A stretch of DNA of 64,000 bases from Fistulifera solaris (taxonomy: Eukaryota). Below are positions 1-11,419 of this stretch, in pieces; the first letter of the stretch is position 1; every line of letters starts with the position of its first letter. Location of the stretch: NCBI GenBank assembly GCA_030295235.1, contig AP026173.1:124001-188000 (forward strand), read 5' to 3'. The notes beneath the pieces were generated by a model. The model searched no databases. It was not told the DNA's origin and saw only the letters and a program-made list of their open reading frames with translations. The translations under genes were made by a program, and so were the position numbers.

Positions 1-955
1 CTGCCGAAACGGGTGCCATACTGCGGACCCAATCGCTGGCGGACGCGGTTGTGCTTGAAGATGACTTTGACATGCGGGGCAAGGATCCCTCCCGCTACGT
101 CAATGCGCTGGGTGGGCCGCCGACCTTTCCCAACGAAGATCCCAATCATCCCTTTTGGGATGATTTGGAAGAAGTGGTTGATTATCAAATCATTCGACGA
201 GAAAACGGTACCACTCCGTTCACACTTCCCATGATCTGGGATGGCTACGATATTAACGATGTTGCCGATGCCGTTCACAACAAATATCCAGGAGGTCACC
301 AAGCGACACTTTTGGGATGGCTGTACAAGGATGGTTTGGAAGTAGACTATGATGTGATGCCGTTCCGTTCCAACCGCGACATTGTCAGCTTGCAATTCCG
401 TTTTGCCTACTTGAACACGTGGGCCATCGAATGCGTGGGAGCGGTCAATTTCTGCATCAAATGGGCTTACGGACGACCCCGTCCCGAAGAAGTGGCGTAC
501 CAGATTGCCACGGGACAAATTACGCAAGGTGTCTCGGAGGAATTGCAAGGCAAGATTGCGTCGATGAATTTGGAAAACGCCACGAGTTTCACCGCGTACC
601 CCGAAGGTTCGCCGTCGCATCCCGCCTGGCCGGCCATGCACTCGGCCGCCAGTGCGGCTTCTTTTGGATTTCGGTCGTTGCCAATTTAACGCCCGAACAG
701 TACTGTGAAGCACTGCGGGTGGATTACGCGGTGGCGTATGCCCGAACGGTCGCCGGTGTCCATTACCCGACCGACAACATTATGGGCTTGAATTTAGGTC
801 AAATGATCTTGGCCGATCGTATGCCCGATCACTTTGCCGAAAGTTTCGGTACGGATAGAGCCAAAATACAAGCGAAGATTGATCGCATGCGATTTGATTG
901 GAATGATTTCAATGTCGATGATTGTTCGATTGCCGGAGTTCCCATTGTGGCGTAG
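1..955 (+). CDS. Vanadium-dependent haloperoxidase / PAP2-superfamily protein, 5'-truncated by the window edge; frameshift at T-run ~662-665
   Basis: Three PAP2/VHPO motifs: KWAYGRPRPEE, EGSPSHPAWPAMH, ARTVAGVHYPTD. Frame 51..689 is open back to base 3 and joins frame 419..955 (AS-FWISVV) if one T is added. Confidence 0.8.
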
Positions 956-1073: not shown

Positions 1074-1711
1074 TTATTCCCTGGTAATCGAACTCTTTTG
1101 GTAGTCATCATTAAATTCATTGCGTTTTTTCATATGCTCGACCGTCAATTGACTGAATGCTTTGAATTGAGGATGATCGGCTGTTTGCATCAACATGAAG
1201 GCCGCCGATTGTGCCGTCGTGAGAAAGGCCCCGGCCTGTTGCATTCTTTGCAAAGCAATTTCTCGATCGTACGGTTGTTGCGACGAAATGCCATCGGCCA
1301 CCAAATGGACCTCTTTTGGAGGGCCAATAAGTCCAAACAAGTTTGTTGCACACAAACGTGGGCTTCGATTCCTACCAACACAAAGGTATCACGCTCCGGA
1401 TACTGTTGCAATTGCTGTAACAAAGGCGGTGTCAACATACTGAATTGTTTCTTTTCAAAGACGTGCGCTGTCGAAGGAATTGTGTTCTCTGCAAAGCATT
1501 CGGCAATGGTAGGACCAAAAGCTTTCTTGTATTGTTCCGTCACGACGACGGGAATGTCCAAGAGCGCCGCTAGACGTGTCATGTATTGTGTCGTTCGCAC
1601 GACCGTCTCGCAACGCCAAATCAAGGAACGAAAGCGTTCTTGGACATCGCACACCAACAATACGGTCTTGCCGGGATGCAGTTTGTTTCCAAGAATGCGC
1701 GGGGCGGACAT
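1074..1711 (-). CDS. Isochorismatase domain-containing protein (ISOC1/2-like); frameshift ~1314-1317
   Basis: TVLLVCDVQERFR, VTEQYKKAFGPT, FEKKQFSM and GIEAHVCVQQT, continuing in ORF 1074..1355 (EVHLVADGISS...LMQTADHPQFK). Confidence 0.9.
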
Positions 1712-1802
1712 TTGTTGTTGTTGTGTAAGCAATGATGGAATAGAAGGAGAAGGAAGAATTAAAAAGGAATGAACGATCACGTTGAAAGGAAAACGCGGGT
1801 TT

Positions 1803-1974
1803 TGTTTTCACGTGTCCAGAAAAAAATGGGAGAGAGCTGTTTTCACTTGTCCAGAAAATGTGGGAGTGTGCTGTTTTTACGTGTCCAGAAAATGTGGGAG
1901 AGTGATGCTTTCACGTACCCAGAAAATGTGGGAGTGTGACGTTTACACGTACCCAGAAAATGTGGGGGAGTGTG
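1803..1974. repeat. Tandem repeat, 5 copies of ~34 bp, consensus TGTTTTCACGTRYCCAGAAAATGTGGGAGWGTGM
   Basis: Units start at ~1803, 1838, 1872, 1906 and 1940, directly abutting with no unique spacers. Confidence 0.9.
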
Positions 1975-2518: not shown

Positions 2519-3713
2519 ATGACAACTCCTCTTCCTACCGTCCACAGCCTTTCCTGTCACGATTTACAAAAACCAGCTGGTCCTTTACAAACGGGGATTG
2601 GATTTCTCGATCATATGCTCGATCAAATCAACAGTCATGCGCAAGTGGGAATTGCTCTCGTATTAGAAGGCGATATTGAAGACAAGAACCGTCACGCTTC
2701 TCTGGATCCGGTCACCTTTTTGTCTTTTTGTGGGCAAGACCGTCGGGACGGCGTTGTTGCCTTTATTAAACGATAAACAACAACAATTACCAGTTACCTT
2801 TTCGTGTCCCCTCGATGAAGCCTTGGTGGAATGTAAACTATCTTTTTCTCCCGAACACGCGGGTTGTGAGTATTTGCACTTTACACCGCTCGGAAAATAT
2901 GCCCGCACCCATTTGGGACAGTTGAATGTTTCTCAATTGCCAGTATTTTGGGAAGCACTGGCGCAAGCGGCGCAATTGCAACTGATTTTCACCAAAGTAC
3001 GAGGAGACAATGCACATCATATTATTGAAAGTTCCTTCAAGGCTTTTTCGCGGGCGTTGCGCAATTTCATCGATGCCAAAGATTTGTATACGGCCGAAGG
3101 TGCAAATGCGCAAGCGTCTACAGCCTTGCAACGACAGGCATCCTTGCAACGAAGTACGAAAGAAACGAGCATTGCCGTGGCACTCCAATTGGATGGAGGT
3201 TCGGCCGGCACGAAGATTGCGACCGGTTTGCCGACGTTGGATCGATTTTGGACGCGCGTCGCCGAGGCAGCACAACTTTCTTTAAAGATTGAAGCTGCGG
3301 GTGATTTGTGGATTGATGAACATCATACGGCCGAAGATGTGGCCATTGCCGTCGGACAATGCTTCGATCAAGCGTTGGGGAGTAAAGCCGGCTTGAATCG
3401 AATGTGGAGTTGTTCCACTGATGGCCTTCAAGTGATCATGGATTTATCGAACCGACCGTGTTTGGTACAAAATCTGCACTGGGACACGGAATTTGTGGAT
3501 CCTGCTGCCGGCGACTTGTCGTGTGAAATGATGGAACATGTTTTGGAAAGTTGGGTCGTCAATGCCCGATGGACGGTGCACATTGTGCAGTCAGGTCCGG
3601 TAAGAGCGGATGATTTGGCCGTGGCGTTGGGTACTGCCGTACGGTATTGTTGCAGTGTCGATGTCCGACGCGCGGGAGCGACCGCATCGAGTAAGGGAAC
3701 GCTGTCGGTGTAA
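2519..3713 (+). CDS. HIS3: Imidazoleglycerol-phosphate dehydratase with two tandem IGPD modules; frameshift at T-run ~2725-2729
   Basis: QTGIGFLDHML, PLDEAL and GDNAHHIIESSFKAF in module 1; RSTKET, GDLWIDEHHTAEDVAI, MDLSNRP, EMMEH and ASSKGTL in module 2. Confidence 0.9.
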
Positions 3714-4093
3714 TAGGAATAAGGTAGCAACCGAGGCTAACGAAGAAAGGCTAAAATTATAACCAAAGCTAGTTAGAAGGAAATTCAGGGGACTTATTTG
3801 TTGACGGGAAAAGGACGACAAGGATCATTGTCTTGTAAGATCAAGAAAAGACAATCTCTCTTTCGTTCATGACTGAAATGCAGTCGTTTCGAGAATAATC
3901 TACATTATTATTTTTAGGTATAGTTGATGAGTCCCGGTACGACTGCGATTTTGTGAAAGTGCAGGTGTCACAAAATCCGGTGTCAAAACTTCGGCTCGCC
4001 GTTTCATAGCAATGAGAAAACTTTCCCAAAAGGGCTTTGAAGGAGAGTCAACAAACGACAACTCTATTATATTAGACGCGATTGAATCCTAAC

Positions 4094-5017
4094 ATGACAA
4101 TGCGGGTGTTACTGCGAGTCATTTTCGTTCTTTTTATGGCAACAATGGCTCAAGGCAACCCGATTCCTCCGATTCCTCATCGCAGATTCTCGCACTCGTT
4201 ATTTCGGCAATGGCGACAACGTCGGATTGCCACACGACGGCGTTTGTCTACCAAACAGCCATCTCTCAGTCCCATGCTGTCGTGGCGCCGTCCGACGACA
4301 CAATCCTTATTGCAACAATGGAGTCATAAGATTCCTTTGTCATCCAAATTCAATCATCCGAATGTCGGTATGACGCATCCGTTCTTTCAATCCTCCGATC
4401 TCCAAGCCACCAATGTCGCGGCTTCATCATCTTCGAATGACGACAACGACGACGAATGGTGGCCGGCCCTCCTGGCATCCCCGCGGCAATGGAGAATATT
4501 GCGCTATCGACAAACGGTCGGACACGGATGGGAGTGTTATATTCGAGTCCGGGATGCCGCCTTGCAATGGGATTTTACGACCCCCAATCATGGCATTTGT
4601 ACGTTGCCGCAACGACAACGCGCCGAAATCTTTGATCGGTTGCCCGCAACGTCGGTGCATCCAATCAGTCACGGTCCCGGACGGCGGCTCGTCACGTACG
4701 CGCGGGCTCCTTTCTTGCGATTTCTGTTTGCGATGAATCCGGTGCAAGTCATTTACGATATTGTCGATCAACGAGAATATCCGGCGATTTATTCGGCGAC
4801 CGCATACGCGACGGGGGATCGTCACTTGTTGCAAGGCGAAGAACGCGTGACGGTTGCTTTTCGGGAACGAACGGGGGCGGTGCAAGTGGAAGTCGTATCG
4901 TGTTCCCGACCGCATGGTTGGAAGGGAAAATGTGTGTGGCCGTTCTTGACGAAAACGCAAGATCAATTCTTTCGACAACAAATGGAAGCCTTGCGGAAGA
5001 TTGCGACTGGTAAATAG
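4094..5017 (+). CDS. DUF1990-family protein with N-terminal signal peptide
   Basis: Hydrophobic leader, then VGHGWECY..VRDAALQW, NPVQVIY, AYATGDRHLLQGEERVTV and VEVVSCSRP, resembling DUF1990. Confidence 0.7.
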   Translation: MTMRVLLRVIFVLFMATMAQGNPIPPIPHRRFSHSLFRQWRQRRIATRRRLSTKQPSLSPMLSWRRPTTQSLLQQWSHKIPLSSKFNHPNVGMTHPFFQSSDLQATNVAASSSSNDDNDDEWWPALLASPRQWRILRYRQTVGHGWECYIRVRDAALQWDFTTPNHGICTLPQRQRAEIFDRLPATSVHPISHGPGRRLVTYARAPFLRFLFAMNPVQVIYDIVDQREYPAIYSATAYATGDRHLLQGEERVTVAFRERTGAVQVEVVSCSRPHGWKGKCVWPFLTKTQDQFFRQQMEALRKIATGK

Positions 5018-7024: not shown

Positions 7025-7277
7025 ACTTTCACGTATCCAGAAAATCTGGTGTCTGGGGTAGATTTCAACAGTTTTCACACTCACAGAAAATTTGGGTGGA
7101 AGGACGTTAAAATTCTGCCTCTCAGTACAAGTTTCTACGTAGAGCCTACGGCGAGGCAGAATTTTAACGTCGTTTGTGCGTTGTTTTCAGTTTTCCCGAA
7201 AATCTGTTAGTGCGTTGACTTGTCCAAAAAATCTGGGAGTGCGGAGTTTACACGTTCCCAGAAAATCTGGGTGAGTC
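7025..7277. repeat. Degenerate cluster (~5 copies) of the same CACGT-CCAGAAAAT-TGGG motif as 1803-1974
   Basis: ctttcacgtatccagaaaatctgg (~7026), ttttcacactcacagaaaatttggg (~7072), ttttcagttttcccgaaaatctg (~7184), gacttgtccaaaaaatctgggag (~7217), tttacacgttcccagaaaatctggg (~7247). Confidence 0.75.
7103..7171. repeat. Perfect 19-bp inverted repeat with 31-bp spacer
   Basis: GACGTTAAAATTCTGCCTC (7103-7121) and GAGGCAGAATTTTAACGTC (7153-7171). The spacer contains the palindrome TCTACGTAGA. Confidence 0.9.
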
Positions 7278-7469: not shown

Positions 7470-10400
7470 ATGTCAAATAGCGCAACTCGCAAACGCAAAG
7501 CCACGCGCAGTGGATTGAAGCGATTGATGGAATTGGATCATGTGACGGTGCAAGAAACCTTTCAATTTGCTTCCGCTAACAACAATGACGAAGCCATCGG
7601 TCACGGGGCGTACATTACCGCCGTCGTGCACAACAAACGCTATTATGGGGCCATCATGGATCAAGCGACCTTACAAGTCGTAGCGCAACAACAAATGCAA
7701 GAGGAACACGACAGTTTGGCCTTGAATGAACGCATGAAACAGGCGCAAACGGCTCCCACCGCCGACTATGACGATGCCATGCCCCCGAAACCAATTCAAA
7801 AATTTCGTTACAAAGATGGATTGCGGTATCTGCTGGCAACGTATACAAACGCGGCCGCTTTGGATGTCAATCGTGACGAGATTGTCGCGGTTTGTGACGA
7901 AGGGGGTGGAATGGTGGGGCCGTTCTATTATCATTATGAAGTACGTGTGTGCTCATCGTTTGTGTGCGTTGGCTTGGTTGGCATTTTCGTACTTTCCTCG
8001 AACTTTATACTTACACCCCGCTTTCATCTCCTCGTACACAGACTCCTCCACCATCCTTGAAAGCCTCCAATGGGACTCCCGAGACACTCTATCATCCTTC
8101 CGTGGCCTTTCATTCGTTCTTGCAATCCATTTTATTGCCACCGTGGTTTCCGTTAGCTTCACAGAAAGCAACATTACCTACTTTAACAGCTCCTACGATT
8201 GTCACGAAAATGACGGCCGCTCCTTCCGTCCCACCCGATCTTTCCTTGCGTCCCATGCAACCACGTTCGCACTACAAAATTGCCATTGTGGGAGGAGGAT
8301 TAGCGGGATTGTCGTGTGCGAAACGATTGCTGATTCAAGCCAAAGAGCGGGGGATTGCGGTGCACGTTACCGTTTTGGAAGCAAGGGATCGGTGGGGTGG
8401 ACGGGTGCACACGATGCGCAGTGCGACAGTTCACAATGACGAACCTTTGATTCCACTGGATTTGGGCGCGGCGTGGATTCATGGTGTTGATCACAATCCA
8501 TTGACGCATTTGGCTTCCACATTAAATTTGGAAGTGTGTCGACCCGTGTCGGAAACGGTACAAATGTTGAATGCCAAGGGCCAACCGGTCGATAAAGCAC
8601 TCGATGAACACGTCAATCGACTATTTGATCAATTGTTGGATGTAGCTGCCGATGATTGTTGGGGAAACCCGGAAGATGCAGCGTTTTCACCCAAACCGTG
8701 GCATCCAACGGCCGTCCGTTGGTATGCACAAACCTTGCGGCAATGTACCGATAAGTTGGATATTCCTTTGGTTCCCGTTCCACCGCATCGAGAGTCGAGT
8801 GATATTTCCTTGGATTGGAGCATTGGACGAGCTTTGGTGCAAAAGAAATTGCGTGCATTTGAAAAATTGTCCGCTGAGGGTCGTTCATTGCTGTTGTGGC
8901 ATGTCAAAAACTTGGAGTACGCACTAGGAGCTAACGTCAGTGATTTGTCTATGCAGTACTGGGATATTGATGATCGGAACGCGTTTGAGGGAGATCATGT
9001 CCTCTTGCAACGTGGATTTGGATCATTGGTGGATGCATTAGTGCACGATTTACAGACGTTGGCTCCCAATCAATTCGAAGGACGTTTGTCGTGTCCGGTT
9101 CAAAAGATCGAATACGGACGGAAAACTACGACCGCACCCATTACCGCGGTCGCAACGTCCCTGCAACAACACGAACAACCACCGTTGGTGCCTTTGTCGG
9201 ATACATGTAGTGTTACGTTGGCTAATGGCGAGACGATAAATTGCGACTACGTAATTTCGGCCATACCATTGGGTGTTTTGAAACAAGCAGTGAAAGCACA
9301 GACGGCGAAAAAACCCATGATAGATAGTAGCGAGGAGAATACGATCGCTTTCGATCCGCCGTTGCCGTTTTCCAAAGAAGACGCTATTTCGAACATGGGA
9401 TTTGGCTTGCTGAATAAGTTATACTTGCATTTTGATCGAGCATTTTGGCGTACATCTTCCTCCAAAGATGTTGCCATGTTTGGGAATACCTCTTCGGTTC
9501 ATCCGCAGCATTACATGTTCACTGATGTCGGGCACATCTTGTCTCCGACGAGCAACAAGGAGGATGCCCCCGCTGTTTTAGTGTCGCTCATATCCGGACG
9601 GGATGCTGCGTTGTCGGAGATACTTCCTGAAGCTGAAGTGGTAGAACAAGCCATGGAAGTATTGCGCACTATTTTTGCTACAGATGAGGTCCCTAATCCC
9701 GCTCACTTTAAGCTAACTCATTGGGGGAAAGATCCTTATTCAAGAGGTAGCTACACATTCCTGCCACCGGGCACCACGGATCAAGACTTCACAGTGTTGC
9801 AGTCTCCGTTGAATCAGAATGGTGATTCTGTCACGCTTTCCAGCGTAGGAGAAACGATGCGCTTATTTTTCTGCGGAGAGCATACTACAGCACTACACCC
9901 CAGTCTGGCACACGGTGCCTGGTTGTCAGGCGTGCGAGCTGCCGAGCAAGTTGTGCAAACTATGACGATGGAGTTCGGAAACACGAGCAATGCAACGAAT
10001 ATAGACCGTTGGATCCCTCTGTCTTTGTATCGACACGACAATCCACAGACGGACTTAAGTTGTCATCTCTGCCACCGTAGTGGCACGACGGTTCGGGAAG
10101 GAACCCTGTTAGCCTTCGCGCGCGGGACGCGACAAGTGGTAGTCCATAACGCTTGTGCGGAATGGAGTCCGGAAGTAGAAGTAATGGAAGAACAGTGGAA
10201 GAACGTTGTGTCCTGTGTTAATCGTGCACAGCGCTTTTTGTGTTCTTTGTGCGAACGTACAGGGGCGAGTATAGGATGCTCGAATGGGAATTGTCATGCT
10301 CAGTATCATTTTCGATGTGCAGAAGATACCGGTTGGCGATTCGAAACGCAGGGAAAAGAATTTCTTTGCGGTAGACACCGAAGTGGTAATGACTGTGTTC

Positions 10401-11419
10401 GAGTGTCTCTTTCCTATTACAAGCAACAGAATCCCTGGGTATCCCATGAGCTTGTTTGCTGTTTGTGCAAGAAAATCCGGGGTGAGATGCTAGCGTTCCA
10501 ACTCAGCACACCCTCATGGTCTGCACCGCAATACGCTGTTGCTCATATCACGTGCGTACAGCACAGCAATCTGGTGGATTTGGAACTGGATCGCAGCAGT
10601 CGATTGGAGTTCGACTATCGTAAGATTGGTACCTTGCTCGAATCGGCGAGGCCTTGCAGCTTGTGTAAAAATGCAGGGGCTACGATTCGATGTCGACATT
10701 GCCATCAATGTTATCATTACGAGTGCGCTGTTTCAACCAAATGGAAATTTCACAAAAAGCGCTCGTTCTGTTGTCCGGATCATCGCTCGAATCGAATTAA
10801 TGGCACCAACCCGGCGACCCGCGCCACTTTAACTTCAGATACAGAAACACCGGCCTCGTTCTTTCAACACGCTCTCTTCTCGATGAATGACAGTTCACAT
10901 CCCCAAGAAGATATCCCTGGAAATCTTGACATTACCAATACACGATTGGAAGACATTTATGACGACAAGGAAGACGAGGATACGGAAAGTTCTTGGACGA
11001 GTGATGACGAAAGCGAATCCGATAAGAGCGAAAGACAGGAAGAAGCCGGAGAGGAGTTGCAAACGACTGCTGAAGACTCAAACGGCGGCGGTAATCCTGC
11101 GCAAAACTTGGAATGCAGTGATATTTTAACCGTGCCAGAAGAGGAGGGTCAAAGCCACTTATGTCGTCTACACCGCCAGTCGATTGGCGCTCTGTGGAAC
11201 GTCGATTTTATCGTCACACGCCGCACGGGCGGTGCATCGCTACTGCAGATTGCTGCTGCGCGCACGGATCCGTTCGACAATTTGCGCGACGGTGACACGG
11301 TCTTGGCCATTAATGGTTTACGCATTGGCGAGGCAGGATTCGATACGCTCGACCAAATTCTAGCGCGTCTTGGACAGGAAGTGGATACACTGATGGAGGT
11401 GCAGCGAAAGTCGTGGTAG
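7470..11419 (+). CDS. LSD1-like flavin amine oxidase (putative histone demethylase) with two extended PHD-type zinc-finger regions and a C-terminal PDZ-like domain; intron 7941-8041
   Basis: IAIVGGGLAGL...EARDRWGGRV FAD motif, DLGAAWIHG, GFGLLNKLYLHF, WGKDPYSRGSY, FFCGEHT...HGAWLSG. HNACAEWSPEV...CSLCERTGASIGC..C..QYHFRCA occurs twice. LRDGDTVLAING near the C-terminus. The GT-AG intron keeps frame. Confidence 0.85.

Follow-up and report, generated by a model that had tools for sequence, protein, structure and literature searches.

A tandem imidazoleglycerol-phosphate dehydratase in Fistulifera solaris whose two modules carry complementary parts of the active site

Introduction

Can a dehydratase of twice the usual length, in which neither half carries a full set of catalytic residues, still be a working enzyme, and how would its active site then be put together? 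This question is raised by a coding region on the forward strand of the window (the whole 64,000-nucleotide stretch of Fistulifera solaris DNA analyzed here), which encodes two modules of imidazoleglycerol-phosphate dehydratase (IGPD), the enzyme of the sixth step of histidine synthesis. We propose, with a probability of roughly 85%, that the gene encodes a working IGPD, and that a canonical IGPD gene would have been duplicated in tandem and fused, after which the copies would have lost complementary residues.

Canonical IGPD (HISN5, His3, HisB; PF00475, EC 4.2.1.19) is represented by structures of Arabidopsis IGPD2 (4MU4, 4QNK), the Acanthamoeba enzyme (6FWH) and Medicago HISN5 (7OJ5). According to the accessible parts of the papers cited here and below, the active site adjoins the two-fold axis of a 24-mer and is built from three subunits (PMC4509728, PMC6029752, PMC5828572), as restated in bioRxiv 2023.06.20.545697. 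Mn1 is bound by H67A', H40A, H162A and E166A, and Mn2 by H66A', E70A', H138A' and H163A; other chain labels are K170A, H48A and D101A as well as R92C, R114C, S191C and K193C (PMC6029752). In Arabidopsis numbering, which is used throughout, chain A supplies H47, H169, H170, E173, D108, Q51, H55 and K177, chain A' supplies H73, H74, E77 and H145, and chain C supplies the phosphate residues R99, R121, S199 and K201 (PMC6029752, PMC4509728). Two printed labels deviate from this scheme. His169A' appears once in the extracted text of the PMC4509728 supplement, against H162A in PMC6029752. E21 is assigned to chain A in the Fig. 2B legend of PMC4509728, yet the doubled enzyme keeps E21 in module 2. 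Since E21 is the counterpart of D108 under the internal symmetry of the monomer, it should belong to A'. The C-loop is essential (PMC4509728), and the reason for keeping the 24-mer cage is stated to be unclear (PMC10978614, section 5).

Gene structure and reading frame

The coding region spans positions 2519..3713 of the window (forward strand), consists of a single exon and encodes 397 amino acids, with no N-terminal presequence ahead of the first strand. In the assembly it appears as two overlapping frames, 2519–2776 and 2667–3713, which jointly encode the two IGPD modules and both match PF00475 (29.2 and 167.1 bits; Pfam cut-off 27), so that the doubled IGPD of about 400 aa described in an earlier note on this DNA is borne out. 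The frames part at a run of five T with one extra base (2725..2729, forward strand). A database protein of F. solaris (P0124, GAX28269.1, 397 aa) comprises both frames: residues 1–70 equal the first, and residue 71 to the end equals the second exactly. Four sequencing runs were compared, two of which cover the site. In run X1, which possibly shares its source material with the assembly, the single contig over 2725 is one letter short there and has 0 other differences; in run X2, one contig over 2725–2729 is one letter short as well, and the contigs of X3 and X5 do not reach the site. Such contigs say nothing on expression. Because the intact P0124 matches both frames and the run contigs lack the extra base, the frame change is an assembly error, and the real frameshift around 2727 that the earlier note had named as fatal to its reading is not present.

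The genome holds a second copy on contig C29 (protein P0004), which is intact, 87% identical to the window copy and itself identical to an F. solaris database protein, and both of its modules exceed the PF00475 cut-off. Together with the frame change in the assembly, this copy could be taken to mean that the window holds a dead homoeologue whose frameshift is real, the C29 copy alone being functional. We find this hardly credible, as P0124 is intact and otherwise identical to the window copy, the extra base is missing from the contigs of both runs that reach the site, and dN/dS between the two copies is low on either side of it, at 0.19 before and 0.16 after the frameshift site in module 1 and 0.14 in module 2. 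Purifying selection acts on both modules.

When the genome was searched with the Pfam model and with a canonical plant IGPD, two IGPD loci were found, both doubled, and no single-module IGPD; these numbers are lower bounds, with introns ignored. A review of diatom amino-acid pathways treats the step, in its accessible text, as plant-like and credits Phaeodactylum with two ORFs for IGPD (PMC3901274). A second IGPD enzyme may therefore exist in other diatoms.

The neighboring genes assigned with Pfam are unrelated to histidine synthesis. They comprise a PAP2-like gene (353–955, forward strand), an isochorismatase-like gene (1190–1807, reverse strand), a DUF1990 gene (4076–5017, forward strand) and a flavin amine oxidase with PHD-like fingers (7940–11419, forward strand). 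At 1803–1990 of the window, in the region that separates the IGPD gene from the divergent isochorismatase-like gene, lie five copies of a 34–35-bp repeat with the core TTCACGTRYCCAGAAAA; two more matches are located at 7028 and 7249, and the 7 found compare with 0.10 expected. It is possible that this repeat is a promoter element. A search of the 1.5 kb that precede the C29 copy yielded no member of the repeat family.

Division of the active-site residues between the two modules

Mapping of the residues in Arabidopsis numbering assigns the role of chain A to module 1 (2519..3068, forward strand). The codons of H47, Q51, H55 and D108 are found at 2612, 2624, 2636 and 2814, those of H169, H170 and E173 at 3015, 3018 and 3027, and that of K177 at 3039. 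Two motifs are kept, FLDHML (H at 2612) and NAHHIIE..FK (3015–3039); the RxTxET hairpin, DxHHxxED, R99, R121, H145 (ExH) and the C-loop are gone. A linker (3069..3131, forward strand) stands in place of the C-loop of module 1, with a short predicted helix (209–216 in the model of the C29 copy). Module 2 (3132..3710, forward strand) combines the roles of chains A' and C. It contains E21 (3162), H73, H74, E77 and D78 (3321–3336), R99 (3399), R121 (3453), H145 (3537), S199 (3687) and K201 (3693), with the motifs DEHHTAED (3321–3336), GLNR (3399), DLSNRP (3453), EMMEH (3537) and SSKG (3687–3695); TLDRFW replaces FLDHML, and H47, Q51, H55, PLDE and NxHHxxE are absent. Where a canonical IGPD domain has two (D/N)xHHxxE motifs, each module has one and the chain has two.

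Each chain thus presents all eight Mn ligands, four in either module. The motifs and losses that the earlier note had listed for both modules are all present, and its central claim, that the losses follow the division of the Mn site between subunits, agrees exactly with the A and A' labels published for the eight ligands (PMC6029752, PMC4509728). The note also saw a bearing on triazole inhibitor sensitivity; an altered sensitivity is left without support, since all residues reported to contact triazole-phosphonates in the accessible text of PMC5113775 (R99, R121, K177, S199, K201, Q51, H55) are retained.

The two modules are identical at 26 of 144 aligned positions and sit on long branches in the tree described below, as might befit a degenerate pseudoenzyme, or an enzyme with a new substrate, in an organism whose histidine synthesis is served by another enzyme. 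Such a reading is very improbable. All 18 active-site positions scored are retained in one or other module, the whole phosphate site included, and the genome search, a lower bound as stated, yielded no other IGPD. The chemistry would very likely be the canonical Mn(II) imidazolate mechanism, unchanged.

Conservation among doubled homologs

The closest homologs were taken as the 120 best of 984 matches. In their first modules, H169, H170, E173, K177 and D108 are conserved in 120/120 and H47 in 111 (8 gaps, 1 N); in their second modules, E21, H73, H74, E77, D78, R99, R121 and H145 are conserved in 120/120 and S199 and K201 in 119. A wider set of 261 proteins, made up of these 120, 140 further representatives and P0124, was reduced to the 161 that cover both modules, a choice made by coverage and not by motif; 100 fragments or single-module proteins were left out. 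HHxxE..FK is found in 161/161 first modules and 0/161 second modules, DxHHxxED in 0/161 first modules and 160/161 second modules. H47 is present in 143/161 first modules, and the other 18 either start too late (12) or are cut by the 260-residue window (6). The acid-base residues are likewise divided, with E21 in 160/160 aligned second modules and D108 and E173 in 159/161 and 161/161 first modules. Among the phosphate residues, R99 and R121 occur in 161/161 second modules and S199 and K201 in 156/156 aligned; Q51, H55 and K177 sit in module 1. These counts measure conservation and not independent events, as the 161 are mostly related diatom-like sequences. The split pattern among doubled homologs is not chance. 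The earlier note had proposed a survey of stramenopile and haptophyte orthologs for the complementary pattern; the pattern is present in 160–161 of 161 doubled homologs, and no haptophyte is among the doubled proteins named.

The complementary losses are not absolute, since module 2 retains H47 in 4/161, H55 in 16/161 and, at the position of K177, a K in 32 and an R in 38 (70/159). Counts by profile column which seemed to show module 1 with parts of the lost motif (H73 36/135, H74 51/137) were discarded as an artefact of setting a variable insertion against the canonical profile. When positions are instead numbered backward from the conserved glycine, His stands at the H74 position of module 1 in 14/161 and Glu at the E77 position in 12/161, with the intact motif in 0/161.

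Several residues of P0004 outside the catalytic set, namely C109, C118, C400, T368/H370 and N58/R59/Q65, are lineage-specific and invariant or nearly so.

Predicted structure and assembly

The C29 copy was modeled with AlphaFold2 using 119 aligned sequences (pLDDT 92.1, pTM 0.91). In the model, a short helical linker connects two IGPD folds, and module 1 appears without the first strand. A four-helix bundle lies between two beta-sheets, and 29 fold matches were obtained at E ≤ 0.001, those listed being IGPD chains; the best is IGPD 6fwh (TM 0.87 by target). A complex prediction of two P0004 copies with four Mn, run without an alignment, scored 0.58, and one control scored 0.69; we give this result no weight in either direction.

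In the canonical 24-mer, A and A' face each other across the two-fold axis, where they make up a pair of equivalent di-Mn sites, each finished by C. Carried over to the doubled enzyme, module 1 would act as A and module 2 as both A' and C. Of the two sites at an interface between module 1 and module 2, one would then be complete and the other stripped of ligands from both sides. Module 1 would contribute H47, H169, H170, E173, D108, Q51, H55 and K177 to the complete site, module 2 would contribute H73, H74, E77, H145 and E21, and a second module 2, belonging to another chain, would add R99, R121 and the C-loop. The two modules that share the Mn ions are taken to lie within one chain. A single module 2 should be unable to fill A' and C in the same site, since all canonical structures described place A' and C on separate chains and the fold of module 2 is canonical. 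Each site would therefore need a module 1 together with two distinct module 2s, which means that the enzyme should still have to form an oligomer. The pseudo-heterodimer with one site per chain, as pictured in the earlier note, consequently needs amending: the split does imply a single complete site for each chain, and this count stands, but the chain would not be self-sufficient, as the sites take three modules.

It is also conceivable that complementation takes place only between modules of different chains, with the linker joining neighbors of another kind, which would again give one site per chain. Canonical sites do need three chains, and the linker span is variable (38–107 residues between the anchor motifs HHxxE and RxTxET, median 49, in 165 proteins). 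Against this, the two-module chain has a pTM of 0.91, which implies that it packs confidently in one way, and an alignment of the Atlas model with that of a chlorophyte cluster extends over 408 residues (TM 0.90), although neither value specifies the kind of interface. We regard complementation between chains only as unlikely and retain the pairing of Mn-sharing modules within one chain.

A further reading concerns the second, emptied site, which by analogy with mammalian adenylyl cyclase might have turned into a regulatory pocket. Diatom first modules do have new conserved residues before the lost motif (N in 114, R in 100 and Q in 113 of 120), and second modules have D/E at the position of H170 in 112/159 and K/R at that of K177 in the 70/159 given above. 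However, the N-R..Q residues were not seen in the Pyramimonadales proteins, and the new residues may merely hold a metal-free interface; a regulatory role thus seems improbable, still more so than complementation between chains only.

With one complete and one emptied site per module pair, two assemblies may be considered. In the first, a cage of 24 modules would be lowered from octahedral to tetrahedral symmetry, with 12 chains, 12 sites and alternating trimers of module 1 and module 2; this would work only if C is the three-fold (or face-diagonal two-fold) neighbor of A'. In the second, three or four chains would form an open ring held by module 2 contacts. From sequence and symmetry, we give cage and ring roughly equal odds. 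The open form would be favored by two traits of module 1: it tolerates long insertions, and several invariant residues that are not ligands are lost from it but retained in module 2 (profile columns 5, 11, 13, 16, 61, 65, 90, 111 and 153). A strict homo-24-mer with 432 symmetry and 24 sites should be impossible for the doubled enzyme because its two modules are unlike.

Distribution and origin

Doubled IGPDs were found in the diatoms Cylindrotheca, Nitzschia, Mayamaea, Odontella and Amphora, and also in the dinoflagellate Yihiella, a pelagophyte, Chlorophyta clusters, and Cymbomonas and Pyramimonas. Four pelagophyte-type proteins (P0153, P0165, P0169, P0178) carry 250–800 aa of low-complexity N-terminal sequence, which is either a real extension or the product of merged gene calls. 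A scan of genome contigs gave one full-length doubled match among 80 of 197 confirmed loci, at L011:534-1895, where the contig is 3.6 kb long and belongs to a Flavobacteriales bin; a bacterial gene was dismissed here, as the protein is diatom-like, and the contig is probably a mis-binned eukaryotic one.

A tree of separate modules was computed from 76 rows under LG+C20, leaving out two P0176 rows with an incomplete module 1. In this tree, 14 algal first modules form one group (96/91) and 14 algal second modules another (100/99), with those of Pyramimonadales least diverged. A separate origin of the Pyramimonadales form was abandoned in view of these two groupings, which include its modules. 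In AU tests, for which the groups were picked after a quick tree had been seen, a clade of all algal modules was not rejected (p-AU 0.34); joining the second modules of two other doubled proteins, the metagenomic P0218 and a gene model of Canna indica, to the algal ones was rejected (p-AU 6.7e-5; P0218 alone 4.1e-4). A single duplication for the algal form of diatoms, pelagophyte, dinoflagellate and prasinophytes fits these results, with long branches in play. Plant IGPD is of cyanobacterial origin (PMC3518814, accessible text), and the algal duplication probably started from a plant/cyanobacterial-type gene.

The same split with the same polarity is seen in Pyramimonadales, in the Canna gene model and in the bacterial-type P0218. 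Both modules of P0218, a metagenomic protein with two cluster members, fall among Lachnospiraceae-like proteins. In 165 canonical sequences sampled, many of them cyanobacterial and firmicute-like, the position of H145 holds Glu in 121 cases and His in 42; the Glu of P0218 at this position is therefore not a loss. A further doubled relative of P0218 was not found among the best 120 of 3360 matches. P0218 and P0294 are bacterial-type doubled IGPDs from metagenomes that show the same split.

In the Canna gene model (P0429, 426 aa), both modules sit with the ordinary Canna enzyme (87/90). The 7 losses of module 1 all fall within the 10 A'/C positions, and the 2 losses of module 2 both fall within the 8 A positions (chance about 0.0007). 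The modules are near-canonical with early complementary losses, and the normal single Canna gene, P0461, is on a contig equal in length to that of P0429. This one gene model may represent a young independent case, or two adjacent genes merged in annotation. By the AU tests (p < 0.001), the Canna and P0218 doublings appear to be separate from the algal origin, and the split-site doubled design seems to have arisen several times independently.

The fixed polarity may be understood from the C-terminus. The last module would retain the role of C because the essential C-loop needs a free C-terminus. A bolder reading, which we regard as doubtful and put forward tentatively, is that at least three independent fusions (algae, Canna, bacterial-type) all placed A first and A' plus C second, channeled by the three-subunit geometry; that the algal enzyme is free of the cage, a ring of three or four doubled chains and the first such IGPD; and that Canna offers a snapshot of the first step.

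Comparison with known systems and significance

Taken together, the two modules resemble a canonical IGPD in fold, the eight Mn ligands, E21, D108, E173 and the phosphate site. Unlike the canonical enzyme of about 200 aa, the doubled one has about 400 aa, two folds and one HHxxE motif per module. Of 19 sequence matches in the PDB, 18 are IGPDs; these are all 176–221 aa long, and none is doubled. An older doubling is known within the family, as gene elongation made the 200-aa monomer itself, with both motifs in all 535 sequences (PMC7284861). There, too, duplication and fusion yield pseudo-symmetry; that monomer keeps both HHxxE motifs, whereas the present case would be a later, second doubling of the whole monomer with one motif lost per copy. 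The accessible text of PMC7284861 mentions no doubled form. Another long IGPD chain is the bifunctional HisNB, a HAD phosphatase fused to IGPD (PMC10978614, section 8, accessible text). HisNB likewise exceeds the normal length, at 350–460 aa, but the extra domain of the doubled enzyme is a second IGPD fold and not a phosphatase: the Pfam search gave no HAD family match, and the N-terminal half is PF00475.

Parallels in design come from other folds. Mammalian adenylyl cyclase C1/C2 and the asymmetric ABC proteins are pseudo-heterodimeric, with one degenerate shared site. By analogy, the doubled IGPD would share with them duplicates of a shared-site homo-oligomer, complementary losses, and one live and one dead site; it differs in its unrelated fold, in having three contributors per site and in its descent from a 24-subunit cage. 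A description of a doubled or split-site IGPD was not found in the open-access literature, which was the scope of the search. The doubled IGPD is a real, conserved and apparently undescribed variant of a well-known enzyme, and its novelty lies in the architecture and repeated origin, not in the chemistry.

For annotation, motif-based checks would wrongly label each half inactive. Diatoms are among the major groups of marine algae that use the doubled form. It offers a clean, repeated example of how a shared-site homo-oligomer becomes an obligate pseudo-heteromer, with old, intermediate (Pyramimonadales) and possibly very young (Canna) stages open to comparison. Every IGPD structure solved is a 24-mer built from a single small subunit. 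A natural form in which complementary loss has deleted half of the sites makes the question of why the cage is kept testable.
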